From: an uncultured Planctomycetales bacterium
GTDB lineage: Bacteria > Omnitrophota > Gorgyraeia > Gygaellales > Profunditerraquicolaceae
Direction of reading: 5' to 3'
DNA length: 51,093 nucleotides
Assembly: GCA_964399915.1 (NCBI GenBank)
Contig: CAYNRN010000001.1
Location: 57,646 to 108,738 of the forward strand
Of the stretch, positions 24,853 through 51,093 are shown piece by piece. The notes beneath the pieces are model-generated. The model saw only the letters and a list, made by a program, of their open reading frames with translations. It was not told the DNA's origin and did no database searches. Position numbers and translations under genes: made by a program. How positions within the stretch are numbered: the first letter of the stretch is position 1; each line of letters begins with the position of its first letter.

Positions 24853-24861
24853 TGCTATAAT
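24853..24861 (+). promoter_or_regulatory. extended -10 promoter (TGcTATAAT) placing the transcription start on the ATG of the ECF sigma gene (leaderless mRNA)
   Basis: TG at 24853-54 and TATAAT at 24856-61. The ATG at 24868 is exactly 7 nt after the -10 element, and no SD sequence lies in between. Confidence 0.5.
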
Positions 24862-24867
24862 ATATCC

Positions 24868-25470
24868 ATGAACGACCTGGAGTTTGTCCGCAAATGCTGT
24901 CAGGGGGACAAACAAACCTGGGATAGTTTTGTCGAAAAATACTCCCGCCTTATATACAATTACATCCATAGCGCCGCCAGGTTCAGCGGCTTATCTCTTA
25001 GGCAGGAAGATATCGATGATATCTTCCAGGATACTTTCGCAGCTTTAAGTAAAGACAATTTCCGTAAATTGAAGAGCTTTCAGGCAAAGAATGGCTGTTC
25101 ATTTGCTACTTGGCTGAGGCAGGTAACGGTTAATCTTACCTTTGATTTCCTGCGTGGCCTTAAAAAGACAGTTTCTCTGGAAGAAGGCGATGAGGGCTCT
25201 ACGCTGAAGGAGATCCTGGCTGATAGTTCGCCGCAGATTGGCGAGCTTCTGCAGCAGGACGAATTACTAAAAGGGCTTAAGGAGTGTATTGAGGTTTTAG
25301 GGGCGGATGATAAATTTTTTGTTGAGTTGCATATAAACCGGGGAATCGCCCTCGAGGTGCTCAAGGGTTATTTCAGGATTTCCCGGGGCGCGATTGATAT
25401 GAAGAAGGCAAGGATTATTGAGCGGCTCAGAGATTGCTTTCGCAGCAAAGGATTTTTTAAGTTAGATTAG
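24868..25470 (+). CDS. ECF-type RNA polymerase sigma-70 family factor
   Basis: 200 aa with region 2 (IYNYIHS...DIDDIFQDTFAAL...FATWLRQVTVNLTFDFLR) and region 4 (a helix-turn-helix near ISRGAIDMKKARIIERLRDCF). Confidence 0.85.
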   Translation: MNDLEFVRKCCQGDKQTWDSFVEKYSRLIYNYIHSAARFSGLSLRQEDIDDIFQDTFAALSKDNFRKLKSFQAKNGCSFATWLRQVTVNLTFDFLRGLKKTVSLEEGDEGSTLKEILADSSPQIGELLQQDELLKGLKECIEVLGADDKFFVELHINRGIALEVLKGYFRISRGAIDMKKARIIERLRDCFRSKGFFKLD

Positions 25471-25490
25471 GCGGTTTCTTACGTCTATTA
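25461..25490 (+). promoter_or_regulatory. candidate ECF-dependent promoter, copy 1 (GTTAGATT-N13-CGTCTATTA), upstream of the anti-sigma/CHAT genes
   Basis: The bipartite motif is identical to copy 2 at 28571-28600, with the same 13-nt spacer length. The CGTC-type -10 is characteristic of ECF promoters. Confidence 0.55.
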
Positions 25491-25611
25491 CAAGTGAGGC
25501 ATCCCGCCATAGTATTAATTGGCAAATCGCGGGATTAGCCCGAATTTATCCCGAGCCATGATATGAAGCGCGAGATAATGGGGAGGGATTTCCGAGCCCG
25601 AAAGGGGACTT

Positions 25612-26316
25612 ATGAATCAGAAGGATATGGATAAGCTGATCCGCGCTGCCTTTGGGGCATGGAAGGCAGACAGCAGCCAGCCGCAGGAGCACCCCAGCGA
25701 AGAGCTGCTAGCTTCCCTGGCAGAGGATAAGCTTGCCGCGGATGAAGCAGGTATGGTTAAGAGCCACATCGTAGGCTGCCGGCGTTGCGCGGAAGCTTTT
25801 GCCGCGCAGATAAGCCTCTCCGATGAGCAGCCTCAGCAGGTGCCTGATGCGCTGGTTGAAAAGGCAAAGGGTTTAGTCTGCCCGGCTGCTTCGGGGATAC
25901 TGGCGGAAATATTCTTACGGCTTAGAGACAGGACGATAGAAATCATCAATACCAGCGCCGACGTGCTGGTAGGCCAGGAACTGGTACCGGCGCCGGTACT
26001 GCGCAGCCGCAAGCTTAAGGATTTTAAAGATGAAGTTACGTTTTTAAGGGATTTCCAGGATATCAGGGTACAGGTAAAAATCGAAAATAAGTCCGGCGGC
26101 ACCTGTTCTGTATCGGTATCCATTCATGATAAGGCCACCCTTAAAGCGGTTAGGGATTTAAGGATTACGCTGATAAAGGATGATACGGAATTAGAATCAT
26201 ACCTTACCCAGTCCGGCAGGGCAGTTTTTGAAAGCGTTCTTTTGGGAAGATATACAGTCGAGATATCTTCCCCCGAGAGAAGAGCAGCTTCGATATTGCT
26301 GGAGATAAAGGCTTAA
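25612..26316 (+). CDS. putative zinc-finger (HxxxCxxC, ZAS-like) anti-sigma factor, soluble, with a C-terminal beta-rich domain
   Basis: SHIVGCRRCAEAF motif about 50 aa from the N-terminus. There is no hydrophobic transmembrane span. It sits directly downstream of the ECF sigma gene. Confidence 0.6.
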   Translation: MNQKDMDKLIRAAFGAWKADSSQPQEHPSEELLASLAEDKLAADEAGMVKSHIVGCRRCAEAFAAQISLSDEQPQQVPDALVEKAKGLVCPAASGILAEIFLRLRDRTIEIINTSADVLVGQELVPAPVLRSRKLKDFKDEVTFLRDFQDIRVQVKIENKSGGTCSVSVSIHDKATLKAVRDLRITLIKDDTELESYLTQSGRAVFESVLLGRYTVEISSPERRAASILLEIKA

Positions 26317-26325
26317 GCGGCTTAA

Positions 26326-28551
26326 ATGTCTGATTTACCTGAAGCTTTAGTCCTTGAAATCACTAAAAAAACGGATGCCCTGTTGATGGGCGTTTTTGAA
26401 CGCAGGCAGGCCGCCTCTACTTTAAGGCATTATAGCCAGATTAAGGTTTCGTTTCCAGAGATAGAAAAGTTTTGCGCTGAGATAAACCTTTTATTAAATA
26501 AAGCGGATAAAAAAGGCAATTTAGAATTCGCATCGGTCGAAGGCCTTAAGAAAACCGGCCAACTCCTCTGGGACCACCTCTTTAGCCGCCAAGTTAAAGA
26601 AAAATTAACCCGTTCATCTTCCTGCGACCTGGTTCTCTCCATAGACGAAGAATTAGTGGATATCCCCTGGGAGTTACTCTATTCGGGGAGCGATTTCCTC
26701 TGCCTGAAATTCAGTTTGGGCAGGATCATCCGTACCCAGGATAATCCTCAGCCCGCCCAATACAGGAGCATGCCCTCTACCCCGAGGATGTTGATTCTGG
26801 CTAATCCGACAAAAGACCTTAAGTCCGCCTACCTTGAAGGCTTATTTATCAGAAACCAGCTTGACCGCAGGCGCCGGGATATCAGCGTTGATTTTAAATC
26901 CACCTATATAGACACGCTATACGTCAAGAAGAACCTGCGCGATTACGACATTGTTCATTTCTCCGGGCATTGCGAATATGACCAGCAGGAACGGGAAAAC
27001 AACGGCTGGATTTTAAGCGACGGCAGGCTTACCGCGCGCGATATCTGTACGCTGGGAGAGGCTACGGTGATGCCCAGCCTGATTTTTTCGCACGCCTGCT
27101 CAAGCGCTAAATTTTCGCAAGATTTCGTTTCCCGGCAATGCGGGGAGAAGGCTTATAGCATTGCCTGGGCTTTTCTGTCCTCAGGCGTGCGTCATTATAT
27201 CGGAGCGATACGCAAGATAGAAGATTCGTTAAGCCTAACTTTTACTCAGGAATTTTACAACCGGATGATTTCCGGCAAACCGGTGGGAGAAAGCCTGCGG
27301 CAGGGAAGATTAAAGCTGGTAAAGGAATACGGGATTTCTTCGGTTTCCTGGATGAGCTACCTGCTTTATGGAGACCCGGATTTTGTCCTTTTTAACCGCA
27401 ATGCCGCTCCTGCTTACAGGCAGCGCGTTAATATAAAGACCCATAAGAAAAAAATCCTTGCCGGCCTGGCAGCGATAACGGTAATCGCCGTAAGCTTCTG
27501 GTTCTATGGCTGGATTGCATCTTTAAACCCGGCTGCCCAGGCGCTTTACTTTAAAGCTAAAAGTTCATTTAATAACGGAAATAATCAGGAGGCGATAAGG
27601 CTTTCCCGGCAGATCATTGAGAAGGACCCTTTGTTCCTCGCGGTTTACCCGTTGCTGGCAGAAACTTACCAGCGGGCAGGGGACAGGGAGACGGCGCTTA
27701 AGTATTATTTTGATTATGCCATTGCCGCGGAGAAACGCAATGATAAGAATAGCCTGGCTGCGGCTTTTACCTGGATCGGCTGGACTTATCATCTGCGCGG
27801 GGAATACCCAAAGGCTTTTGAGTTTTATCAGCAAGCAATAGATTTGAGCCGGCGCAATAGAGACAGCTTAAACGAATCAAGGGCAATGGAGAGGCTGGCG
27901 GTATGGCATATTGATAAAGAGGAGTACGACAATGCGCTTGAGCTTCTGATGAAAAGTTCGGAGATTAACCGGCAGAGGCAGCATATCCGCCAGTACAGGC
28001 ATAATCTGGCCTGTGATTATTTTGATATCGGGCTTGTATTTGTGAATAAAAATGATTATCAGGCCGCGCGCGAATTCTATGAAAAGAGCCGTATTATTTT
28101 TGAAAAGATGAAGCTGAGGCATGAATTAAGCGATTGCTATTTTAATCTCGGCGAGATATATCTTTACGAAAAGGAATATCAGAAAGCGCTGGCGTATTAT
28201 TACAAAGGCCTGGCCCTGGATGAGGAACTGGGGGCGCAGGCAAATATCGCCTCAGATTACAATATGATCGGTGAGCTTTATGTTGAAATAGATAACCTAA
28301 GGGATGCCGAGAAATTCTTTGGTCAGGCAGCTGCGCTTGGCCTTAAGATCGGCGCCAAACCGGAATTAGCCGAGGCATATTATAATCTGGCGCAGGTATA
28401 TAAAAGAAGGAATATCAGGCATAGAGCCAGGGACTATTTCCGTCAAGCCCAGGAGATTTATGTAGGCATAGATACCCCCAGATATGAAAAAATCAAGCAG
28501 GAATTCCTCGCGCTTTACTCTACAGCCTCCGATACGCACGCCCCCGATTAA
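26326..28551 (+). CDS. CHAT-domain (caspase-like) protease with a single transmembrane helix and C-terminal TPR repeats
   Basis: The N-terminal half has the CHAT His/Cys dyad context (DIVHFSGHCEY ... SLIFSHACSSA). A TM helix (ILAGLAAITVIAVSFWFYGWIA) lies near aa 380 and is followed by more than 6 TPR-like repeats. Confidence 0.8.
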   Translation: MSDLPEALVLEITKKTDALLMGVFERRQAASTLRHYSQIKVSFPEIEKFCAEINLLLNKADKKGNLEFASVEGLKKTGQLLWDHLFSRQVKEKLTRSSSCDLVLSIDEELVDIPWELLYSGSDFLCLKFSLGRIIRTQDNPQPAQYRSMPSTPRMLILANPTKDLKSAYLEGLFIRNQLDRRRRDISVDFKSTYIDTLYVKKNLRDYDIVHFSGHCEYDQQERENNGWILSDGRLTARDICTLGEATVMPSLIFSHACSSAKFSQDFVSRQCGEKAYSIAWAFLSSGVRHYIGAIRKIEDSLSLTFTQEFYNRMISGKPVGESLRQGRLKLVKEYGISSVSWMSYLLYGDPDFVLFNRNAAPAYRQRVNIKTHKKKILAGLAAITVIAVSFWFYGWIASLNPAAQALYFKAKSSFNNGNNQEAIRLSRQIIEKDPLFLAVYPLLAETYQRAGDRETALKYYFDYAIAAEKRNDKNSLAAAFTWIGWTYHLRGEYPKAFEFYQQAIDLSRRNRDSLNESRAMERLAVWHIDKEEYDNALELLMKSSEINRQRQHIRQYRHNLACDYFDIGLVFVNKNDYQAAREFYEKSRIIFEKMKLRHELSDCYFNLGEIYLYEKEYQKALAYYYKGLALDEELGAQANIASDYNMIGELYVEIDNLRDAEKFFGQAAALGLKIGAKPELAEAYYNLAQVYKRRNIRHRARDYFRQAQEIYVGIDTPRYEKIKQEFLALYSTASDTHAPD

Positions 28552-28570
28552 ATAATTTAAAAAAATTCGC

Positions 28571-28600
28571 GTTAGATTTCACCGCCTTTTGCGTCTATTA
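28571..28600 (+). promoter_or_regulatory. candidate ECF-dependent promoter, copy 2 (GTTAGATT-N13-CGTCTATTA), upstream of the BNR-propeller gene
   Basis: Same motif and spacing as copy 1. It is followed by a GGAGGTGG RBS and ATG 28617. Confidence 0.55.
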
Positions 28601-28616
28601 AAGCGGAGGTGGCACG

Positions 28617-30176
28617 ATGAAGAATATTATTTTGGGGCTAATCGTATTTGTAGCGGCGGTAGATATTTCTTTGGCAGCGGACTTTCAATGGCAGGATATC
28701 AGTTTGGGCAACAGAGAGGTGACCGCGGTATTGGCGAGTGATTCGGCAGGCAGCATTATTATCGGCTCGGCAGGCAGGATTTTAAGGTATGTTGACGATG
28801 CCGGGGATTGGCGTTTGCTTTTGTCGGTAAGAGGCGATATCAGGGATATTAATCGCCTGGCGGCAGATCCTTCCGATAAAAGACGGCTGTACGCTGCCAC
28901 GGGCAACGGTTTATATATCAGCGTAGATAACGGCAACAGCTGGAAAAAATCCCTTAAAGGGAAAAATCAAAATGAGCAGGCGTGTACAGGCGTGGCGGTT
29001 TGCGAAGGCGTGGTTTACCTCGGAACAAAAGGAGGGCTTTTTATCTCCGTAGATAATGGCAGGCTTTGGCATAAGGCAAACGGCACCTTAGGCAAGACAG
29101 AGATTATGAACATTGATTCTGCTTTTGGCAGTGTATACGTTGCTTCTGCGGATGGTGTATATCTTAAGGAAGAAGATTCTTTTGAATGGAGTAAGATTTA
29201 TTCCGCTCAAGGGAGGGAGGTTTTTATTTATGAAGAAGGGGCAGCTGAAAGCCGGGAGGAGGACAGGAGTTCGCTGGTCAATTATATTTGCGCTGATTCC
29301 CTCCGCCAAGGGCACCTCTACCTGGCTACGGCAATCGGTATATACGAAAGCCAGGATAACGGGCTGAATTGGCGATCATTTGACGATTATGGGCTTTTAA
29401 GCAAAGACGTACGTCTACTTTCATTACTGCCGACAGGCGAATTATTCGCAGCGACTCAAAAAGGAATTTTCAGGTATGACGACGGCAGGTGGCAGGAGCT
29501 TTTCTTTGGCGCTAACTGTGACTATGTGCGTTGTTTAAGCGCTGATATAGAGGGGGTACTCTATGCTGGTTGTAATAACGGTTTATTCAAGGCAACCCAG
29601 GTAGCTGCCGATGCCACATATAGCAATGATCCGGATTATTCCAGAGAGCCGTCTATACAGAAGGTTCAGCAGGCAGCGATAAAATATGCTGAGGTTGAGC
29701 CGGAGAAGATAATCCGCTGGAGGAAACAAGCGGCGAAAAAAGCTTTACTGCCTAAAGTCACTCTCTCTATGGATCAGGATTTAAACCGGACAAATTCAAG
29801 CAATATCTGGGGCACCTATAGCTCAAACGGGACTCCGGGCAGGCACTATGCAGGCCCGGATGACGTCACTAAATATAACAATAAGAGCTGGGGGGTGTCG
29901 TTAAGCTGGGAGTTAAGCGATTTAGTCTTTAGCGATGACCAGACTAATATTGATGTCCGTTCCCGCCTGATGGTGGAATTGCGCGATGATATACTGGATG
30001 AGGTGAATAAAACTTACTATGAACGCTTAAGGGTCAAAATGGAGTTAGACGAGCTCTCTCTCCTGGATAAAAAGAAGCGCAGGGAAAAGGAGCTGCGGAT
30101 ACAGGAATTAAGCGCTTCGCTAGATTCTTTGACCGGCGGCTATTTCTCCCGGCAGATTCAAAATAACAAGGGTTAA
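28617..30176 (+). CDS. secreted BNR/Asp-box repeat beta-propeller protein (Ycf48/sialidase-like) with a C-terminal coiled-coil region
   Basis: Signal peptide MKNIILGLIVFVAAVDISLA. Repeated SxDxGxxW boxes (SVDNGNSWKK, SVDNGRLWHK, SQDNGLNWRS). The C-terminal 150 aa are charged and coiled-coil-like. Confidence 0.7.
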   Translation: MKNIILGLIVFVAAVDISLAADFQWQDISLGNREVTAVLASDSAGSIIIGSAGRILRYVDDAGDWRLLLSVRGDIRDINRLAADPSDKRRLYAATGNGLYISVDNGNSWKKSLKGKNQNEQACTGVAVCEGVVYLGTKGGLFISVDNGRLWHKANGTLGKTEIMNIDSAFGSVYVASADGVYLKEEDSFEWSKIYSAQGREVFIYEEGAAESREEDRSSLVNYICADSLRQGHLYLATAIGIYESQDNGLNWRSFDDYGLLSKDVRLLSLLPTGELFAATQKGIFRYDDGRWQELFFGANCDYVRCLSADIEGVLYAGCNNGLFKATQVAADATYSNDPDYSREPSIQKVQQAAIKYAEVEPEKIIRWRKQAAKKALLPKVTLSMDQDLNRTNSSNIWGTYSSNGTPGRHYAGPDDVTKYNNKSWGVSLSWELSDLVFSDDQTNIDVRSRLMVELRDDILDEVNKTYYERLRVKMELDELSLLDKKKRREKELRIQELSASLDSLTGGYFSRQIQNNKG

Positions 30177-41755: not shown

Positions 41756-42715
41756 TTGTATCGTTTAACCGAGTGGTTTGTATTTGATTTGCTGAATATA
41801 TCCCGCCAAGCTCATTTCGGGGAGGCCCTGCAATTTTTTCTTTACGATTCGATAAAGATAATCCTGCTTTTGTTTGCAATGATCAGCGTAGTCGGTTTTA
41901 CCCGCTCCTTTCTGTCTGCCAGCAGGATCAAAAGGTGGCTTACTAGGCGCGGGATAATCGGAAACCTCCTGGCGTCATTGTTCGGCGCGGTTACGCCGTT
42001 TTGCTCATGTTCCTCCATACCTATATTCTTAGGTTGTATTGAGGCCGGTATTCCGCTTGGAGTAGCTTTTTCTTTTTTAATCACCTCTCCGATTATAAAC
42101 GAATATCTGGCAGTTCTGATGCTGGGATTCTTCGGGTGGAAGATAGCCCTTGCCTACGTTTCAAGCGGCATTCTCATCGGCGTGGCCTGCGGGTTAATCC
42201 TGGGTAAAATGCGCCTGGAGCGTTACTTAGCCGAGGATATGCTGCTGCTTTATTCGCAGTCCCTTTCAGTAGATGTAGAATACAGAGGAATTAAACAGAG
42301 GATTATATTCGGTTTAAGAGAGGCGATTGGGATAGTAAAAAGCATCTGGTTATGGATATTAGTCGGTGTCGGCATAGGCGCGCTGATTCATAATTATGTC
42401 CCGCAGGAAGCAGTGCAGAAAATAGTCAGCAGGGGGGGTGCTTTTTCCGTGCCGGTTGCGGTTTTACTGGGTGTGCCGATATACGGAAGTTGCGCTGCGA
42501 TTGTGCCGATAGCAGTGGCCTTGTTCCAGAAAGGGTTCCCTCTGGGGACAGCGCTTGCTTTTATGATGGCGGTTGCGGCATTGAGCCTTCCTGAGGCAAT
42601 AATGCTCAAGCGGGCGATGAAGCTTAAACTGCTGGCGATATTCTTCAGCATCACCGCTTTAGGGATAGTTATTACCGGGTATATCTTCAATATCCTGCAA
42701 AAGGTTTTAATATAG
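41756..42715 (+). CDS. predicted permease (ArsP/DUF318-like)
   Basis: Polytopic membrane protein with the signature TPFCSCSSIPIF. 319 aa. Confidence 0.7.
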   Translation: MYRLTEWFVFDLLNISRQAHFGEALQFFLYDSIKIILLLFAMISVVGFTRSFLSASRIKRWLTRRGIIGNLLASLFGAVTPFCSCSSIPIFLGCIEAGIPLGVAFSFLITSPIINEYLAVLMLGFFGWKIALAYVSSGILIGVACGLILGKMRLERYLAEDMLLLYSQSLSVDVEYRGIKQRIIFGLREAIGIVKSIWLWILVGVGIGALIHNYVPQEAVQKIVSRGGAFSVPVAVLLGVPIYGSCAAIVPIAVALFQKGFPLGTALAFMMAVAALSLPEAIMLKRAMKLKLLAIFFSITALGIVITGYIFNILQKVLI

Positions 42716-42716
42716 G

Positions 42717-42791
42717 ATGGGAAAAAATTTTATATTCGTACCTCCGGATGACAAATGGGTACGGTGGCGCAGGATGATTTTAGAGGGCTAA
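42717..42791 (+). repeat. intergenic repeat family, copy A (contains a 24-codon ORF, MGKNFIFVPPDDKWVRWRRMILEG)
   Basis: Roughly 75% nucleotide identity to copy B by hand alignment, and clear similarity to C and D. The core is ACCTCCGGATGACAAATGGGTACGGTGGCGCAGGATGATTTTAGAGGG. Confidence 0.7.
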
Positions 42792-42800
42792 AGAAACTAT

Positions 42801-44033
42801 ATGATTGAAAATAATAGAGTTGCAGATATGAAGAGGAGGGCCTTAGGGCTTATTATTTTATTTGGGCTGGTGAGCCTTTTCGGAGATATTGTTTATGAAG
42901 GCGCGCGCAGTATTAACGGGCCTTATTTAAAACTTCTTGCGGTTAATGCGACTACTTTGGGATTAATAACGGGGTTGGGGGAGTTCTTGGGGTATGCGCT
43001 GCGTTTAATCTCCGGATACGTTTCAGACAGAACAAAGGCTTATTGGTTTTTTACTTTTTTAGGATATGGATTGTTGATTAGCGTACCCTTGCTTTCTCTG
43101 GCAGGTGTCTGGCAGGTTGCCGCCTTGTTCATTATATTGGAACGGGTCGGTAAGGCTGTCCGTAGTCCTGCTAGGGATACAATACTTTCGCAGGCAAGCA
43201 AGCAGATTGGCACAGGTTTTGGTTTTGGGCTGCATGAGGCGATGGATCAGATAGGAGCGGTTGCTGGTCCATTAATATTCGCATCGCTGTTTATGGTTAC
43301 AGGCAAACAGATAAGTATTGCCGATTATCAAAAAGGATATGCATTCTTATGGGTTCCATTTTTCTTGGTTATCTTTTGCCTTTTTGTATCATACCGTAGA
43401 GTTCCCGGGCCCGAAGTCTTAGAAGCGGAGCAGAAAGATGATATTCCGGACAAGCTTTCAAAAATTTTCTGGTTGTATACTTTATTTATCTTTATAACGA
43501 CCTTAGGTTTTTCTAGTTTCATTTTAATAGCTTTTCATTTTAAATCTTCAGGCATCTTATCAGACGTTCAGATACCGTTATTTTATGCTATTGCAATGGG
43601 TATTGATGCACTAGCTGCTTTGACAATCGGGAAGTTCTATGATAGCTTAAAAAAGAGGAGCGGAATGCGAAATGCAGGTTTAAATCTTTTGATAACAATC
43701 CCGCTAATTTCACTGTTGATCCCATTATTTGTATTCTCAAGGAATCTGCATTTTGTCATAATCGGAGTGCTTTGTTGGGGTATCGTAATGGGAATTCATG
43801 AGACGATTATGAGGTCTGCTATCGCCGATATAACTTCTTTAACAAAACGTGGCACAGGATACGGCATTTTTAATACCGCTTATGGGTTTGCCATGTTCCT
43901 TGGGAGCCTTATATTGGGATTTTTTTATGATAAATCGATATCCCTTGTTGTCTTTACTATTGTTGTCACGGAACTATTTGCTTTTATCCCATTTTTTCTG
44001 ATTAAGAAGGAGATTGACATTAAGCCGAGATGA
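42801..44033 (+). CDS. MFS-type transporter
   Basis: 410 aa with about 12 hydrophobic helices in a 6+6 arrangement and a central charged loop (RRVPGPEVLEAEQKDDIPDK). Confidence 0.75.
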   Translation: MIENNRVADMKRRALGLIILFGLVSLFGDIVYEGARSINGPYLKLLAVNATTLGLITGLGEFLGYALRLISGYVSDRTKAYWFFTFLGYGLLISVPLLSLAGVWQVAALFIILERVGKAVRSPARDTILSQASKQIGTGFGFGLHEAMDQIGAVAGPLIFASLFMVTGKQISIADYQKGYAFLWVPFFLVIFCLFVSYRRVPGPEVLEAEQKDDIPDKLSKIFWLYTLFIFITTLGFSSFILIAFHFKSSGILSDVQIPLFYAIAMGIDALAALTIGKFYDSLKKRSGMRNAGLNLLITIPLISLLIPLFVFSRNLHFVIIGVLCWGIVMGIHETIMRSAIADITSLTKRGTGYGIFNTAYGFAMFLGSLILGFFYDKSISLVVFTIVVTELFAFIPFFLIKKEIDIKPR

Positions 44034-44132
44034 TTAAAAAATCAGTTTATATTCGCACTCTGGGCTGGCCGATGGTTACGGTGGCTCGGGATGGCTCTGG
44101 AGGTTTTACGAAGGATAAGTGCTTTGGAATAA
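44034..44132 (+). repeat. intergenic repeat family, copy B
   Basis: Core ACTCTGGGCTGGCCGATGGTTACGGTGGCTCGGGATGGCTCTGGAGG. The conserved reading frame (LKNQFIFALWAGRWLRWLGMALEVLRRISALE) has no start codon and is in frame with the MFS gene after its TGA. Confidence 0.7.
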
Positions 44133-44193
44133 AGGAGTTATAGAATTTCTGTTGTTAATGTGTAATCCTTTGAAATGTGGCATAATGTTGTAT

Positions 44194-44226
44194 AAAGTTG
44201 ACATCTATTTGGTAAATGTCAACTTT
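44194..44226. terminator. perfect 11-bp hairpin (AAAGTTGACAT - 11 nt - ATGTCAACTTT), flanked by A and T runs and possibly a bidirectional terminator
   Basis: Perfect inverted repeat followed by TTTTGATTT. It lies between the MFS module and the promoter of the next module. Confidence 0.45.
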
Positions 44227-44233
44227 TGATTTA

Positions 44234-44331
44234 TTACCCAACAGGATATGTAATATTAATATTTGTTGGGTAATTATTTTCTTGACATCTGTTACCCAAC
44301 AAGTTATATTGTAATGTGGTTTGTTAGGTAA
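44234..44331 (+). promoter_or_regulatory. two tandem 40-bp palindromic operators (TTACCCAACA-N20-TGTTGGGTAA) overlapping a TTGACA-17-TATATT promoter
   Basis: Operator 1 is 44234-43 / 44264-73. Operator 2 is 44292-301 / 44322-31 (TGTTAGGTAA). The -35 TTGACA is at 44282-87 and the -10 TATATT at 44305-10. AGGAGG at 44333-38 precedes ATG 44343. Confidence 0.65.
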
Positions 44332-44342
44332 TAGGAGGGAAT

Positions 44343-44663
44343 ATGAGAGGCGTGATAAAAGGTGCGTTAGCAGAAGAGCTTGAAAATTCTCTTCGGATGA
44401 GGAAAGAGTATGTGGAGGCATTGCGTAGATTGCCTAAAGGCTGCCTTGCGGTAAGAAGGATACGAGGCCATGAATATTATTATCTGGTAAAAAGGATAGG
44501 TAAGAAAGTAAAATATTTATACAAGGGAAAAATATCCGAAGAAGAGAAAAAGAAGTATAACGAAGCTAAGGATCTGCGGGCAAAATACAAAAAACTACTG
44601 GCCCAGGTCAAAAAGCAGATAAGATTTTTAAGGAGTTCGTTACGTGGAAAAGAAGCAGTCTGA
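44343..44663 (+). CDS. small basic protein of unknown function, a candidate antitoxin or regulator partner of the downstream nucleotidyltransferase
   Basis: 106 aa, lysine/arginine-rich, with a RGHEYYYLVKRIGKKVKYLYKG beta-hairpin-like motif and a C-terminal helix. Strong RBS. It overlaps the next gene by 20 nt. Confidence 0.55.
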   Translation: MRGVIKGALAEELENSLRMRKEYVEALRRLPKGCLAVRRIRGHEYYYLVKRIGKKVKYLYKGKISEEEKKKYNEAKDLRAKYKKLLAQVKKQIRFLRSSLRGKEAV

Positions 44664-45342
44664 TCTATGTCTTGAAATTTTAAGAAGGTTTCATAAAGAG
44701 GGCATCCTAGACGATTTAATTCTGATAGGCAGCTGGTGTATATATTTCTATAAAGAATATTTCAATAACGTTCCGTATATAGATCAAGCCGCCATACGAA
44801 CCAGAGACATTGATTTCTTAATAGATAGACCCGCCAGAATAAAACATACCGTTAATATTCCCGAGATTCTAAAAGATTTAGGTTTTGTCACAATTTTAAA
44901 AGGACGTGAAGGATATGTCAAGCTCGACCACCCTGATTTATTACTTGAGTTTTTAGTCCCAGAGAAAGGGAAGGGCACAGATAAACCGGTTCCACTCACA
45001 AAACTAGGCATGAACGCAGTTGCGCTGCGATTTTTGAATCTGCTTACCGATAATATAATTAAAATAAAAATCGAAGATTTTGATATTTCAATGCCCCATC
45101 CTGCCAACTTTGCTCTCCACAAGCTTATTATTTTCCAGCGCAGATTCAAGGAAGAAAAGGCTATTAAGGATAGGAGTACTGCTGTTGATATTCTGAAGGC
45201 TTTGATAAAGAAAGGCGAAGGAGCATATGTCAAACACATCTTTAATACCATGATTCCAAAATGGCAGAAGAAGGTTATCAAAGGGCTGGAAGAGGCAAAG
45301 GAAAAAGATATTTTAAATCTGCTGACTATTAAAACTGGGTGA
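44644..45342 (+). CDS. pol-beta-superfamily nucleotidyltransferase-fold protein (recalled as GSU2403-like)
   Basis: Minimal NTase signature LIGS-x27-RDIDFLI (hG[GS]...DxD), 232 aa. GTG start with AAGGAG 8 nt upstream. Confidence 0.6.
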   Translation: MEKKQSDLCLEILRRFHKEGILDDLILIGSWCIYFYKEYFNNVPYIDQAAIRTRDIDFLIDRPARIKHTVNIPEILKDLGFVTILKGREGYVKLDHPDLLLEFLVPEKGKGTDKPVPLTKLGMNAVALRFLNLLTDNIIKIKIEDFDISMPHPANFALHKLIIFQRRFKEEKAIKDRSTAVDILKALIKKGEGAYVKHIFNTMIPKWQKKVIKGLEEAKEKDILNLLTIKTG

Positions 45343-45348
45343 TAGGAA

Positions 45349-46089
45349 ATGGACTATAAATTCCAAAGAAGACGAGTAGATAAGATATCGAGGGAAAAGA
45401 TTATTGATGAACTCAAGATGGTTGCAAAGCATTTTGGATATAAAGATTATAAGCGCAGGGATTTTGATAAGATTTCAACCATAAGCGGGAATACGGTTAT
45501 TCGTGAGTTTGGCACATGGGAAAAAGCATTAGAATTTCTTAGAAACCTCCTTCAATCGCAGGGGATTGAACTTAAATCAAGCAATAGAAGGAGCAGAAAA
45601 CAATTTACTGAACAGAAACTTTTCGATGAGATGGAAAGAATTTGGCAATCTCTAGGACACAGGCCATCAACAGGAGAGTGGAAGCTTTTGAAACCCAAAA
45701 TTAGTAGTAATACCTATATGCGTTATTTTGAAGGATGGCAGAATGCTTGTCTAAAGTTTATCGAATACAAAATGGGCAATCAAATTCTTACTGATGAAGA
45801 AATATCTAATTCTAATGAGATAACAGCCAATAATGTAAACGGAAAAACAACGAAAAGTGAAAAAGGGTCCAGAACAATCGGCGCAGGTCTGCGATTGAAA
45901 ATCTTAGATAGAGACAATTTTCGTTGCATTCTTTGTGGAAGGAGCCCTGCAACCGAGATAGGAGTTAGACTCCATATTGATCACAAGGTTCCATTTTCTC
46001 AAGGCGGTCAGAGCACTATTGATAATTTGCAGACGCTATGTCAAGACTGTAACTGGGGAAAAAGCGATACTTTGTTGACGAACCGATGA
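45349..46089 (+). CDS. HNH endonuclease with two N-terminal HNH-associated repeats
   Basis: C-terminal CILCGRS...HIDHKVPFSQGGQSTIDNLQTLCQDCNWGKS (beta-beta-alpha-Me with a zinc CxxC pair). Two repeats of about 55 aa end in FGTWEKALEFL and FEGWQNACLKF. Confidence 0.8.
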   Translation: MDYKFQRRRVDKISREKIIDELKMVAKHFGYKDYKRRDFDKISTISGNTVIREFGTWEKALEFLRNLLQSQGIELKSSNRRSRKQFTEQKLFDEMERIWQSLGHRPSTGEWKLLKPKISSNTYMRYFEGWQNACLKFIEYKMGNQILTDEEISNSNEITANNVNGKTTKSEKGSRTIGAGLRLKILDRDNFRCILCGRSPATEIGVRLHIDHKVPFSQGGQSTIDNLQTLCQDCNWGKSDTLLTNR

Positions 46090-46199
46090 ACGTGCGAGAT
46101 GTTTTTAGTCCTTTGAAATTTTTGAGATTTTCTACAACATCTTCGTTATGAACAAGTTACAAAATGACCGACTCAAATAATCACAAAGCAGGCAAGCGT

Positions 46200-46287
46200 C
46201 TCTACATTGTTACCTACGGATGACCGATGGAAACGTTGCTACAAACCGATTTTACAATTCTTGGAAGGGTTGCATAATAAGAGTTAA
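46200..46287 (+). repeat. intergenic repeat family, copy C
   Basis: Core ACCTACGGATGACCGATGGAAACGTTGCTACAAACCGATTTTACAATTCTTGGAAGGG. The conserved frame reads LLPTDDRWKRCYKPILQFLEGLHNKS. Confidence 0.65.
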
Positions 46288-46348
46288 CCCATTGATTTAT
46301 ATAGCGTTATGAAATAAAACGAAGAAAGAACCGAACGTAAGTGGAAAG

Positions 46349-47149
46349 ATGCCCACAGTCAAGTTAAATGACGTTGTGCTTTATTATGAGATTTACGGTA
46401 ATGGCAGGCCTCTTTTGTTGATTTGTGGTCTGGGCTCTGACTGCTCAAGCTGGTCAGGCGTTGTTAAGGAATTATCGTCATATTTTCAGACGATTATTTT
46501 TGACAACCGCGGCAGCGGACGCAGTAGCATTGGATACGACATATGTACCATCAGCAAAATGGCAGAGGATACAATAGCCCTGATGGATTTCCTAAAGATA
46601 GAAAAAGCCCACATATTGGGCCATTCAATGGGCGGCTATATTGCTTTGGAACTTGCCATAAATTATCCCAGCCGTGTCGATAAGCTCATTTTAGCAAGCA
46701 CTGCATCCGTTTCTTCTAAAAGAAATAATATTCTTTTTGAAAAGATGTACAGTCAGCTTGTAAAAGAAGGGCCTTCTGAGGAGTGGTTTAAAAGATGGAC
46801 TTTTTGGTTGTTTTCTCCCGAAACTTTAAATAACAGCCAGTTTATCGAAACATTCATTAAAAATTCGGTGAAATACCCCTATCTTCAAACCGCTGAAGGT
46901 TTTAAAAGTCAGATAGACGCAATTAAGCTGTTTGATGTGCGTGACAAGTTAGGCGTTATCAAGGCCAAAACCCTAATTCTTGAAGGAAAGGATGATGCCC
47001 TGATTACCCCGGAAGAATCCGGAATATTAGCTAAAAATTTACCCGGAAACACCTTTCGGGTATTAGATGGAGTAGCACATTCTATACATATAGAAAACCC
47101 CAGGTTATTTACAGAGGCTATGATGGGATTCCTTAATTTTGGAAATTAG
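46349..47149 (+). CDS. alpha/beta-fold hydrolase
   Basis: 266 aa with the nucleophile elbow GHSMGG, an oxyanion-region LICGLG, and a C-terminal His in VAHSIHIE. Confidence 0.85.
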   Translation: MPTVKLNDVVLYYEIYGNGRPLLLICGLGSDCSSWSGVVKELSSYFQTIIFDNRGSGRSSIGYDICTISKMAEDTIALMDFLKIEKAHILGHSMGGYIALELAINYPSRVDKLILASTASVSSKRNNILFEKMYSQLVKEGPSEEWFKRWTFWLFSPETLNNSQFIETFIKNSVKYPYLQTAEGFKSQIDAIKLFDVRDKLGVIKAKTLILEGKDDALITPEESGILAKNLPGNTFRVLDGVAHSIHIENPRLFTEAMMGFLNFGN

Positions 47150-47161
47150 GAGGGATATATT

Positions 47162-49225
47162 ATGAAGAAATTACTTTATCTTGCGTATATTTTAGCGCTA
47201 GTATTTTTAAGTCCGCGGACAACTTGTGAGGCCGCTGGGAAGGTAGCCCCAAAAATCTCACAACCGATTTATGAATTCAGTATCCGCAGAGAAAAGCTTT
47301 GCATGCCTGATGGTGTCAAGCTTGCCGTGACATATTTCATACCTGTTGCGAAGAGCAAAGGCGAAAAGTTCCCAGTCCTTCTTAAGATGGACCCTTACCG
47401 TAAGGACGATTTTTTTTACAAGTCGGATTATACAAGGTCCGCTTATTTTGCAAGGCGCGGCTATGTTACGGCGAGAGTGGACGTGAGGGGCACCGGAGGC
47501 AGCGAAGGGATGCTTCCTTCCCGCGAATATTCGGATATCGAACTCGATGATGCGGTAGAGATAATTAATCAACTTTCGAAAAAGCCGTGGTCTAACGGCA
47601 ATGTTGGGATGTACGGAATGTCTTGGAGCGCTTTTAACTCCATAATGACGGCAATGCGCAAACCACCGGCGCTCAAGGCAATCATTGCGATGCATGGTTC
47701 AGAGGATCTTTACTACAACGATATACACTATATAGATGGCGTTATGCATATGGATTATTATGATCAGCAGGTTGATACTGACAATGCCCTTCCGCAAACC
47801 CCGCAATATGCCTTAACAAAAGAGTTTTTTCAGAGCAGATTTGATAGGGAACCTTGGATAATTCAGGAGATTAAACAGCAGAGAGACAGTGAATTCTGGC
47901 GTTCAAAATCGCTTTGTTTTAACAAACCCCTTGAAGTTCCGGCTTATGTAATCGCAGGCCTCCTTGATGGCTACAGGGATTTCGCGCCGTATATTTTTGA
48001 GACATCAAAAGCTCCGGTAAGAATGGAAATAGGGCCGTACAACCATTCTTACCCGAACAAATCAGAAATAGGCCCAAGATACGAATGGAGAGAGACTGCT
48101 GTGCGCTGGTGGGATTATTGGTTGAAAGGGATTGATAATGGTATTTTAGATGAGCCGCGTGTGGTGCTTTTTGTAAGGGCAGGCCATGAACCAATGACAA
48201 TTCTTGATAACACTCCGGGAAGCTGGCGCGCTGAAAATTCTTGGCCCATTGCGGGCACCAAGATTTTGAGATTCTATCCGAATGAGGCGCGCGGCCTAGA
48301 AGAAAAACTCCCGACAGACGCTGAACATTCGCTGATGTATTCTCCTGGTGCAGGAATGGCCGCGGGTGGCTGGTGGGGTGAACTTACCGGTGATATGTCC
48401 GAAGATGATGCCAAAAGCCTTGTCTATGATTCCGGAGAACTTAAAGAAGACATCCAAATAATCGGATGTCCGAAAATCAACTTGAATGTAATCTCTGACG
48501 CGCCTCTTTATCAATGGAGCGTGCGGCTTGAAGATGTTAGGCCGGACGGCAAAGTCTCTTTAGTAAGCGGCGTTCTTATCAATCCGTCGCAACGCAATAG
48601 CCGGTTCAACCCGGAGACGCTCGTTTCCGGCAAAGTTACCAGCCTTTCTGCGCAGATTCATTTTACGACATGGACATTCAAGGCCGGACACAAAATCCGG
48701 CTTGCTATTTCAAATGCGCAGTTCCCCATGGCTTGGCCAACGCCGAAAAAAGGAAGCACAAAGCTTATAATCGGCCCCGGCACGTGGCTTGAAATGCCAA
48801 TTCCGCCTCTGCCGTCGCTTCCTGAACCGGATATGCCAGAGCCAACCGAAGATGAAAATCCGCCGGATTATAAGGATATCTATTCTTTCGGTCCGGTTTT
48901 CTCCGCAACGCGCGACGAGATCTGCGGAATTTCCAGATATACGACGGCCTCTGATTGCGCCTGGTCAATCAAAGATAAAGATTTTGCCAGCAGCGAATTT
49001 TATACTTGGGAAGTCAAGGACAACGAACCTGAGAAGGCATCATATTCCGGAATGAGAAGGAATGTTTTTCAATTACATAATTCAAGCATTGTCCTCTACG
49101 CTGTTTTTGATATCTCCTCGGATGCGGAAAACTTCAAGGTCTCGGTTTCGCGGAGCATCTTTAAGAACGGCAAGCTTATCAGGAGAAAGGAATGGAATGA
49201 GAACATTCCTAGATATTTTCAGTAA
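47162..49225 (+). CDS. secreted CocE/NonD-family (S15, X-Pro dipeptidyl-peptidase-like) hydrolase
   Basis: Signal peptide MKKLLYLAYILALVFLSP. Also DPYRKDD, VDVRGTGGSEG and the nucleophile context GMYGMSWSAF, plus a C-terminal beta-sandwich region. Confidence 0.8.
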   Translation: MKKLLYLAYILALVFLSPRTTCEAAGKVAPKISQPIYEFSIRREKLCMPDGVKLAVTYFIPVAKSKGEKFPVLLKMDPYRKDDFFYKSDYTRSAYFARRGYVTARVDVRGTGGSEGMLPSREYSDIELDDAVEIINQLSKKPWSNGNVGMYGMSWSAFNSIMTAMRKPPALKAIIAMHGSEDLYYNDIHYIDGVMHMDYYDQQVDTDNALPQTPQYALTKEFFQSRFDREPWIIQEIKQQRDSEFWRSKSLCFNKPLEVPAYVIAGLLDGYRDFAPYIFETSKAPVRMEIGPYNHSYPNKSEIGPRYEWRETAVRWWDYWLKGIDNGILDEPRVVLFVRAGHEPMTILDNTPGSWRAENSWPIAGTKILRFYPNEARGLEEKLPTDAEHSLMYSPGAGMAAGGWWGELTGDMSEDDAKSLVYDSGELKEDIQIIGCPKINLNVISDAPLYQWSVRLEDVRPDGKVSLVSGVLINPSQRNSRFNPETLVSGKVTSLSAQIHFTTWTFKAGHKIRLAISNAQFPMAWPTPKKGSTKLIIGPGTWLEMPIPPLPSLPEPDMPEPTEDENPPDYKDIYSFGPVFSATRDEICGISRYTTASDCAWSIKDKDFASSEFYTWEVKDNEPEKASYSGMRRNVFQLHNSSIVLYAVFDISSDAENFKVSVSRSIFKNGKLIRRKEWNENIPRYFQ

Positions 49226-51028: not shown

Positions 51029-51093
51029 CAAAATTTAAGGCGATGAGGTTCGCCTTATAACCGCCTAAGAAAGGTTGATAACCTCTACTGGCA

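Follow-up and report, generated by a model that had tools for sequence, protein, structure and literature searches.

A module of four genes lies in the 51-kb stretch of DNA analysed here (contig CAYNRN010000001.1, from an uncultured bacterium of Omnitrophota lineage; hereafter the window), and it was examined together with both of its flanks. The genes encode, in this order, a sigma factor of the extracytoplasmic function (ECF) type, a soluble protein of the zinc-binding anti-sigma (ZAS) type, a protein that joins a CHAT domain to one transmembrane (TM) helix and tetratricopeptide repeats (TPRs), and a secreted propeller protein (Table 1). An original prediction, made from the sequence alone, had assigned the four genes in this manner and had suggested that the CHAT protein gates the sigma factor by cutting its inhibitor. 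All four genes were found at the coordinates given there, consecutive and on the forward strand, and the assignment of each product agrees with the domain models, hydropathy profiles and structure models described below. The conservation of the first three genes points to one functional unit, in which a membrane-tethered protease may release a sigma factor from a soluble anti-sigma.

Components of the module

Table 1. Positions of the genes, promoters and protein regions of the module in the window
Feature	Position	Strand	Basis or remark
Extended -10 housekeeping-type promoter, TGCTATAAT	24853-24861	+	Ends 6 nt 5' of the sigma ATG
ECF (group IV) sigma, 200 aa	24868-25470	+	Sigma70_r2, TIGR02937
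Promoter P1, -35 GTTAGATT, 13-nt spacer, -10 CGTCTATTA	25461-25490	+	Exact match; predicted to drive the ZAS-CHAT operon
Long leader from P1 to the ZAS start codon, 121 nt	25491-25611	+	Long compared with typical leaders
Soluble two-domain ZAS-type anti-sigma-like protein, 234 aa	25612-26316	+	Zinc motif, no TM segment, AlphaFold2
Conserved ZAS linker, residues 106-148, ...ADVLVGQELVPAPVLRSRKLKDFKDE...	25927-26055	+	Conservation, low pLDDT
Invariant R131 in the ZAS linker	26002-26004	+	Wide family alignment
CHAT-TM-TPR protein, 741 aa	26326-28551	+	Domain models, topology
CHAT domain, residues 76-350			E=3e-27
CHAT H211/H215	26956-26970	+	
CHAT C258	27097-27099	+	
TM helix, residues 377-399	27454-27522	+	Kyte-Doolittle 1.99
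TPRs, residues 400-741	27523-28548	+	
Promoter P2, same bipartite motif	28571-28600	+	Exact match; predicted to drive the propeller gene
Secreted propeller protein, 519 aa	28617-30176	+	Signal peptide, AlphaFold2
Signal peptide of the propeller protein, residues 1-21			Present in 43/43 orthologs
Seven-bladed Asp-box propeller, residues 22-329			pLDDT about 90 (AlphaFold2)
Propeller C-terminal module, residues 340-519	29634-30173	+	Helix-strand-loop-strand-coiled-helix

The first gene product is matched by the TIGR02937 model (sigma70-ECF) at 60.8 bits against a cutoff of 42.9 over residues 18-190 and by Sigma70_r2 at E=2e-8, and a PDB sequence search returned weak generic RpoE/SigE matches (~1e-3). 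A neighbour of the cognate type, the ZAS gene, lies immediately 3' of it, and a CGTC-containing -10 motif is present at two sites. For comparison among genomes, relatives of the CHAT protein were taken from a one-genome-per-species collection in which 160 species carry one, and the best 80 loci were analysed, all of them from Omnitrophota metagenome-assembled genomes except for a few labelled Planctomycetales or Margulisiibacteriota. The sigma orthologs are 46-60% identical across all loci.

The second protein contains the zinc motif H52-x3-C56-x2-C59 together with H27. These four ligands are invariant in the aligned Omnitrophota orthologs, and in the wider family H52, C56 and C59 are kept without exception while position 27 is either His or Cys, with Cys in the divergent relatives, the pattern of an H-x3-C-x2-C site with a His/Cys ligand ~25 residues upstream that defines class I ZAS proteins. 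A TM segment as in the single-pass anti-sigmas of the RseA type is absent, the highest 19-residue Kyte-Doolittle average being 1.26 in the window protein and 1.7 among 76 orthologs (mean 1.06). AlphaFold2 models an N-terminal domain (about residues 1-112) with helices over residues 3-69 at a predicted local distance difference test score (pLDDT) of 63-85, and a C-terminal Ig-like beta-sandwich (residues 140-234) at pLDDT 85-92. The top Foldseek match of the model is ChrR, a weak one (E=3e-3), and a PDB sequence search with the protein gave nothing meaningful. A profile search of 1.8 billion representatives yielded 460 members of the ZAS family at E<=1e-10; the best 150 of them are stand-alone proteins of ~234 aa or fragments, and no fusions occur among these. 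We refer to a predicted zinc-binding, putative anti-sigma protein, which would bind and inhibit the sigma encoded next to it.

In the third protein the CHAT domain is recognised by PF12770 with 96 bits (cutoff 24), and a PDB sequence search with it returned nothing meaningful. An alignment of 21 orthologs shows no exchange at H211, H215 or C258, and the corresponding His and Cys motifs are present in all variants that we inspected as well, so that a His-Cys dyad is retained and peptidase activity can be predicted. The 20 residues before the TM helix contain 7.4 Lys/Arg on average and the 20 residues after it 2.7, with the same bias in 80/80 orthologs; because the Lys/Arg-rich side precedes the helix, the positive-inside rule assigns the CHAT domain to the cytoplasmic side and the TPRs to the outside, as had been predicted. 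The best 120 homologs are all full-length at 54-80% identity, and all those among them with a named source belong to Candidatus Omnitrophota or Omnitrophica. Identity amounts to 54% in the TPR region and 59% in the CHAT domain, and such conservation of the outward-facing part would fit a conserved endogenous ligand better than a target in an arms race.

The fourth protein carries a signal peptide, and AlphaFold2 confidently models it as a seven-bladed fold, with matches to BNR and Sortilin families that stay under their cutoffs. In structure it comes closest to the periplasmic propellers with which Bacteroides hybrid two-component systems sense ligands (4.5e-13), followed by GH74 enzymes and Ycf48. 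The C-terminal module of ~180 aa, which the original prediction had not mentioned, is built from two helices, a strand, a disordered loop, a second strand and long coiled helices, and its conservation exceeds that of the propeller (58% vs 38% identity). A PDB profile search with this module gave no match, and its likeness to a TolC/OEP-like repeat is a weakly supported lead, the Pfam OEP model reaching E=0.018-0.05 in 5/15 members.

Promoters and gene order in related genomes

The bipartite motif GTTAGATT-N13-CGTCTATTA, which had been noticed in identical form 5' of the ZAS-CHAT gene pair and of the propeller gene, is exact at both places, and at P1 its -35 element overlaps the final codons of the sigma gene. 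Up to 3 mismatches can be admitted without a further site turning up in the 51-kb window; chance would give 0.12 matches, and 0/100 shuffles yielded two or more. Among the related genomes the motif stands 5' of ZAS in 76 loci with an invariant spacer, and 5' of the propeller gene in 45/47 loci, including those where the gene has moved kilobases away. Differences among loci are mostly single bases after the CGTC core. The core itself is changed in two genomes only, to TGTC in L010 and to TATC in L054, and in each genome both promoters are altered alike (permutation p=0.006), which would be explained by one co-evolving sigma factor that reads P1 and P2. A regulon consisting of the ZAS-CHAT operon and the propeller gene is thus supported.

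The sigma gene does not belong to this regulon. A TATAAT-type box (TAnAAT) lies 5-9 nt 5' of its ATG in 66/74 loci, 55 of them with the extended TG, and the ECF motif is found 5' of it in 0/74. As TGCTATAAT ends 6 nt before the ATG, a Shine-Dalgarno sequence is impossible, implying that the sigma mRNA is leaderless and its transcription not ECF-dependent. A general scan of the module region for sigma-70 promoters and terminators performed no better than on shuffles. The suggestion that the sigma factor drives a regulon of its own, including the secreted propeller, therefore stands as far as the conserved motif and its constant spacing are concerned, but it does not extend to the gene of the sigma factor. 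Positive autoregulation is typical of the ECF family without being defining. With a housekeeping-type box and no ECF motif at the sigma gene, a constitutive sigma factor would be combined with a sigma-dependent inhibitor, protease and propeller, and the circuit appears to be of a negative-feedback design, unlike the usual positive autoregulation.

The distance from the ECF-type promoter to the start codon is <=60 nt in 109/121 leaders. The remaining 12/121 contain inserts of 91-295 nt directly after the -10 element that end at the Shine-Dalgarno sequence, and most of the inserts share the 5' sequence AAGTGAGGnCAyAAsTTATGGAG ... CATAAsTTrTATGCCCGAACTTAyCCC, which has hairpin potential. Insert-bearing leaders were noted in the window, in L011 (5' of both ZAS and propeller), and in L013, L015, L023, L037, L041, L056 and L060; the window leader is probably a degenerate insert resembling a miniature inverted-repeat transposable element (MITE). 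The inserts could represent a MITE with this position as its target or an RNA element acting in the leader, and no Rfam family matches them. A riboswitch in the 121-nt ZAS leader was considered and rejected, as its fold does not stand out from shuffles (z=0.35) and Rfam gives no match. In six loci, genes of Y1 (IS200/IS605-type) transposases lie directly behind a promoter-like motif, TTAGAA/T-N14-CGTCTATTA. Five of these genes (L006, L012, L023, L024 and L039) are on the minus strand between the H+-pyrophosphatase gene and sigma, and the sixth (L043) lies between CHAT and propeller, where it separates the propeller promoter from the propeller gene. A further Y1_Tnp gene stands 3' of the propeller gene at 11834-12538 of L004/L005, with the motif not detected there. 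Either the -10 region is an insertion target of Y1 elements, or a transposase gene has been captured by the regulon.

Conservation of the gene arrangement in related genomes had been named beforehand as one test of the original prediction, and the arrangement held. Sigma, ZAS and CHAT are contiguous, in one order and on one strand, in all of the ~77 Omnitrophota loci (out of the 80) with enough upstream sequence to be counted, and ZAS and CHAT are separated by 0-13 nt or overlap in ~77/77, the gap from the ZAS stop codon being 9 nt in the window. The surroundings are less constant. The 5' neighbour is an H+-pyrophosphatase gene in ~50 loci and recJ/rpmB in the window, and on the 3' side propeller/trxA alternates with Rrf2-metY-cysK-type genes, the latter where the propeller is absent. 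The propeller gene follows CHAT directly in some loci, in others inserted genes of 0.1-4.5 kb in total lie between the two, and in one it is inverted. Since the flanks vary and the triad stays constant, sigma, ZAS and CHAT are taken as the conserved unit and the propeller as a loosely linked satellite.

The same combination was met in more distant lineages, where the contexts of six distant ZAS members, on contigs with a G+C content of 37-62%, were looked up. A CHAT-domain gene lies immediately 3' of ZAS in 6/6, and an ECF-type sigma gene lies 5' of it in the four contexts with a complete upstream gene (L086, L087, L088/L089 and L092/L093); in L090 the ZAS gene begins at the contig end, and in L091 a truncated, unannotated open reading frame (ORF) precedes it. 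The divergent CHAT proteins keep the motifs H[FY]AGH and F[SA]N[AS]C and, where complete, a TM helix right after the CHAT domain. Beyond this core they differ: the L087 protein continues after the TM helix with two F5/8-type-C (discoidin) domains, that of L090 with an unannotated region ending in a TNYHVV-like motif, and that of L092 (873 aa) with a longer TPR array, and the L088 protein has an N-terminal nucleotide cyclase domain. A fixed core with exchangeable accessory domains, outside-facing in three cases, gives the proteins the look of a receptor family, domain swapping of this kind being typical of signalling receptors. Taken together, these comparisons strongly support a functional linkage of sigma, ZAS and CHAT, in a module that appears conserved across the sampled Omnitrophota species and has modified forms in more distant lineages.

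The flanks in the window consist of housekeeping genes, with those for carbon monoxide dehydrogenase/acetyl-CoA synthase (CODH/ACS), polA, glgA, rho, prfA, murA, argS and recJ on the 5' side, and trxA, pta, ackA, panD, def, pckG and purC on the 3' side. No cas-like families were found among the flanking genes and no tandem-repeat or CRISPR-like array in the window, in agreement with the earlier statement that the module has no CRISPR context; the cas7-11, csx29, csx30 and csx31 genes and the array that make up a Craspase locus are accordingly missing. PADLOC returned generic TPR matches only, and none for sigma or propeller.

Several further features were noticed. An rpmB-like ORF (ribosomal protein L28; 24521-24745, read by eye) stands where most other Omnitrophota have the H+-pyrophosphatase gene, and is the only minus-strand gene noticed near the module. 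At ~42000-48000 the G+C content falls to 0.37-0.43 from about 0.47-0.49, and this segment, in which the ORFs 42801-44033, 44644-45342 and 45349-46089 have no NCBIfam match, may have been acquired. A fluoride riboswitch (crcB motif, RF01734) at 51030-51093 scores 40.3 bits against a gathering cutoff of 34 and is cut by the window end. In L056, a c-di-GMP-I-GGC riboswitch (RF03167; 61.3 bits against 59) is located at 5312-5408, ~300 nt 3' of the CHAT-TPR gene.

The ZAS linker and the proposed switch

The strongest constraint on the ZAS protein lies between its two domains. Information content peaks at residues 111-150 (3.1-3.5 bits per position), and identity among orthologs amounts to 62.8% over residues 106-148 compared with 31% for the sigma-binding region. 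In the AlphaFold2 model, the inter-domain segment 72-138 is nevertheless below pLDDT 50, with values of 34-47 in the linker, so the linker is probably flexible. A stretch so well conserved and yet predicted to have so little order may be a motif that takes up its structure only when bound to a partner. In a wide alignment of family members that are 17-30% identical, eight positions are invariant, namely H52, C56, C59, four residues of the beta-sandwich, and R131, which is thus the sole invariant residue beyond the zinc finger and the beta-sandwich. Clan-CD peptidases show strict specificity for the residue before the cut (the P1 residue), which is often Arg, as in separase and the metacaspases. 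Considering this preference, R131 is a natural candidate cut site and plausibly the P1 residue for the CHAT domain, and the linker a candidate site for both docking and cleavage.

From these patterns we infer a switch in which a membrane-tethered CHAT protease cleaves the soluble ZAS protein on an envelope signal, probably at R131, and thereby frees the sigma factor, and we give this reading an even chance of being correct. The sigma factor would be made constitutively from its housekeeping-type leaderless promoter and be held inactive by ZAS, which is co-transcribed with a single-pass protein whose CHAT domain is predicted to face the cytoplasm and whose TPRs would face the periplasm. CHAT would be switched on when the TPR domain senses an event outside the cytoplasm; the signal is likely a protein partner, the sigma-induced secreted propeller being one possibility. 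CHAT would then cut ZAS in the conserved flexible linker, most likely after R131, and the cut would part the sigma-binding domain from the beta-sandwich, resulting in sigma release. The free sigma factor would transcribe from GTTAGATT-N13-CGTCTATTA, giving more ZAS and CHAT, which would reset the circuit by negative feedback, together with the propeller. The contact between propeller and TPRs is conjectured along with the other steps, and a role of the propeller as co-sensor is speculative because its gene is only loosely linked. A bolder version, which we advance tentatively and regard as somewhat less probable than the switch itself, would see in these single-pass proteins a widespread and so far undescribed class of bacterial caspase receptors, whose exchangeable outside domains (TPR, discoidin and others) allosterically switch on a cytoplasmic CHAT domain. 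A single cut after an invariant Arg in a soluble anti-sigma would free a constitutive ECF sigma and replace the two-protease scheme of regulated intramembrane proteolysis (RIP), and the circuit would be a core one throughout the phylum Omnitrophota, with the propeller possibly as co-receptor.

Several observations weigh against the protease-gated switch. The zf-HC2 model of Pfam scores 16.5 bits on the window ZAS protein, under its gathering cutoff of 22.2, although it reaches 27 bits on the L086 ortholog. The low pLDDT of the linker may partly stem from the shallow alignment of 32 sequences, from which the beta-sandwich was nevertheless modelled confidently. The covariation of the -10 core rests on two genomes only, and the propeller gene is absent within 6 kb in ~25 loci. 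Moreover, RsrA and ChrR respond directly to redox and singlet-oxygen cues without a dedicated protease, and ZAS and CHAT are both predicted to be under control of the sigma factor, so that the regulon might just as well have CHAT as its product and not as its input.

The last two points lead to the alternative that fares best, which we consider unlikely but worth serious attention. The CHAT-TM-TPR protein would then be the output, the sigma/ZAS pair would sense a cytoplasmic cue such as thiol oxidation through the zinc site, and CHAT-TPR and propeller would be envelope effectors that, for example, process other substrates. The ECF promoter 5' of ZAS-CHAT, which makes CHAT a member of the regulon, speaks for it, as do the invariance of the HHCC site, the fold match to ChrR, itself a soluble two-domain ZAS anti-sigma, and the conservation of the TPR region, whose 54% identity is compatible with a housekeeping envelope role. 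On this account, however, it would be hard to see why ZAS and CHAT stay adjacent in ~77/77 loci and in 6/6 divergent contexts while the other regulon gene drifts, or why the strongest constraint on ZAS falls on the linker and not on the zinc finger or the sigma-binding helices (31%). Nor is the retention of a protease domain in the cytoplasm, with exchange of the domains outside, what one would expect of a pure effector.

A non-proteolytic variant appears improbable. It would have the ZAS linker and beta-sandwich dock on CHAT, so that the ZAS-sigma complex is recruited or released uncut, comparable to securin as a pseudo-substrate of separase. A conserved linker next to an Ig-like beta-sandwich does resemble a binding module, and dyad mutants of the myxobacterial CHAT protein DdvA kept the wild-type phenotype under the conditions tested; the invariance of the His, His and Cys residues in all orthologs and variants argues instead for catalysis. 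Slightly less probable again is a role in anti-phage defence or abortive infection, in which the module would respond to phage components much as DdvA/DdvS or Craspase do in defence. All characterised links between CHAT and ECF sigma factors have so far been associated with defence, and CHAT, TPR and ECF co-occur in predicted conflict systems. Yet the module is placed among conserved housekeeping neighbours (argS, recJ, trxA, pta, ackA, panD, def), where neither cas genes nor a CRISPR array nor a PADLOC match beyond the generic TPR ones was found, its visible local regulon is a secreted propeller and not a set of defence genes, its sensor domain is conserved (54%) and not diversifying, and its sigma factor reaches 36 bits with the NF041236 model (CAS_III-E_sigma), for which the cutoff is 100. 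Finally, although downstream housekeeping genes are syntenic too in many loci, an adjacency inherited without any functional link is effectively refuted, since the flanks change around a constant triad that shares one promoter, is translationally close and recurs in distant lineages with unrelated neighbours.

Relation to known anti-sigma systems and significance

ECF sigma factors rank third among the major modes by which bacteria transduce signals. The route generally described for membrane signals to reach them is, with few exceptions, a transmembrane anti-sigma on which site-1 and site-2 proteases act. In RseA/DegS/RseP and FecIRA an envelope signal likewise leads to anti-sigma proteolysis and ECF activity, as would be the case for the module, and FecIRA has in common with it a sigma target that is an envelope protein and could feed back on the sensor. 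In these systems, however, the anti-sigma itself spans the membrane and is cut first by a site-1 and then by a site-2 protease, whereas in the window the protease is predicted to be transmembrane and the anti-sigma soluble. A soluble anti-sigma with an HxxxCxxC zinc site is known from ChrR-sigmaE of Rhodobacter and from RsrA-SigR, and ChrR, the best though weak fold match of the ZAS protein, also has a second, C-terminal beta domain. Those proteins differ in sensing singlet oxygen or thiol stress without a dedicated adjacent protease, in having a C-terminal cupin in place of an Ig-like sandwich, and in lacking a conserved linker that bears an Arg residue.

The closest relative in terms of parts is DdvA of Myxococcus xanthus, which has a zinc-bound anti-sigma domain in the cytoplasm, joined by one TM helix to a TPR-CHAT region in the periplasm, partners with the ECF sigma DdvS, and is proposed to use its CHAT domain as its own site-1 protease ahead of RseP; a CBASS/CRISPR defence island is under its control, and outside Myxococcota it is known from one Comamonas only (PMC11506125, PMC6061681). 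Both systems combine an ECF sigma, a zinc anti-sigma domain, one TM helix, and TPRs with a CHAT His-Cys dyad, and in both CHAT is proposed to gate sigma release. In DdvA these parts form a single ZAS-TM-TPR-CHAT polypeptide; in the window ZAS is separate and the order is CHAT-TM-TPR. The CHAT domain is periplasmic in DdvA and predicted to be cytoplasmic in the window, with the TPRs outside. Thus, the module can be seen as the parts of DdvA split into two proteins and turned around, and with the anti-sigma soluble and CHAT in the cytoplasm an intramembrane step would not be needed. As the PDB searches with ZAS and CHAT came back empty, no sequence relation to DdvA, Csx29 or Csx30 is detectable.

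In the type III-E CRISPR Craspase system, Csx29, a TPR-CHAT protein acting with Cas7-11, cleaves Csx30 and so relieves the inhibition of the ECF-like CASP-sigma (PMC10028731). A cytoplasmic CHAT domain that cuts a soluble sigma inhibitor and a sigma factor with local target promoters are features that the window module would share, cleavage being a proposal for the latter. Craspase differs in being activated by crRNA-guided (CRISPR RNA-guided) binding of target RNA, in having no TM helix, and in an inhibitor, Csx30, that is not a ZAS protein, and its genes lie beside cas7-11 and a CRISPR array, neither of which was found in the window. CalpL-CalpT-CalpS also comprises a dedicated protease, a soluble anti-sigma and an ECF sigma, although CalpL is a soluble protease of the SAVED-Lon family that is activated by cyclic tetra-adenylate (cA4) and associated with type III CRISPR. 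By computation, Kaur et al. predicted in 2021 gene neighbourhoods in which an EACC2-caspase is accompanied by an ECF sigma and by a TPR protein of the DUF1822 family (PMC8195603). These neighbourhoods too link peptidases of the caspase-like kind to TPRs and ECF sigma factors, but they involve the EACC2 adaptor, variable effector domains and a conflict-system context, and a ZAS partner or a CHAT-TM-sensor topology is not described for them.

The earlier view of Craspase as the one CHAT-to-sigma connection was accordingly too narrow: the Csx29/Csx30 link is real, but DdvA/DdvS, CalpL/T/S and the predicted caspase-ECF neighbourhoods had been left out. DdvA/DdvS, Csx29/Csx30 and CalpL/T/S demonstrate that proteases, including CHAT proteases, can gate ECF anti-sigmas, and the idea of an undescribed stand-alone route holds for this exact arrangement only, given the precedents for protease-gated ECF/anti-sigma pairs. 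The arrangement was not described in the literature that we searched, although an ECF Hub group annotation may conceivably list a CHAT context; the main text of Casas-Pastor 2021 mentions neither CHAT, caspase, TPR nor Omnitrophota. By its sequence features, the module does not qualify as a DdvA-type protein, as a Craspase locus or as a case of RseA-type RIP. Protease-gated ECF/anti-sigma switches are already known, and the form with a membrane-bound CHAT protein and a soluble ZAS would be newly described here.

If the proposed switch is correct, the usual layout would be inverted, with a protease that spans the membrane and an anti-sigma that is soluble, and a one-enzyme route across the membrane would be added to the known ones. 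For bacterial CHAT proteases, which are poorly understood, a physiological substrate would be defined and a candidate cut site named, and the CHAT-sigma link of Craspase and DdvA would become part of a broader signalling theme that reaches beyond defence. Comprising three genes and a 30-bp promoter, the system should be easy to test and might be reusable as an orthogonal protease-gated switch. For the Omnitrophota, an uncultured phylum of ultra-small bacteria, the module is among the few recognisable regulatory circuits that are conserved across the phylum.

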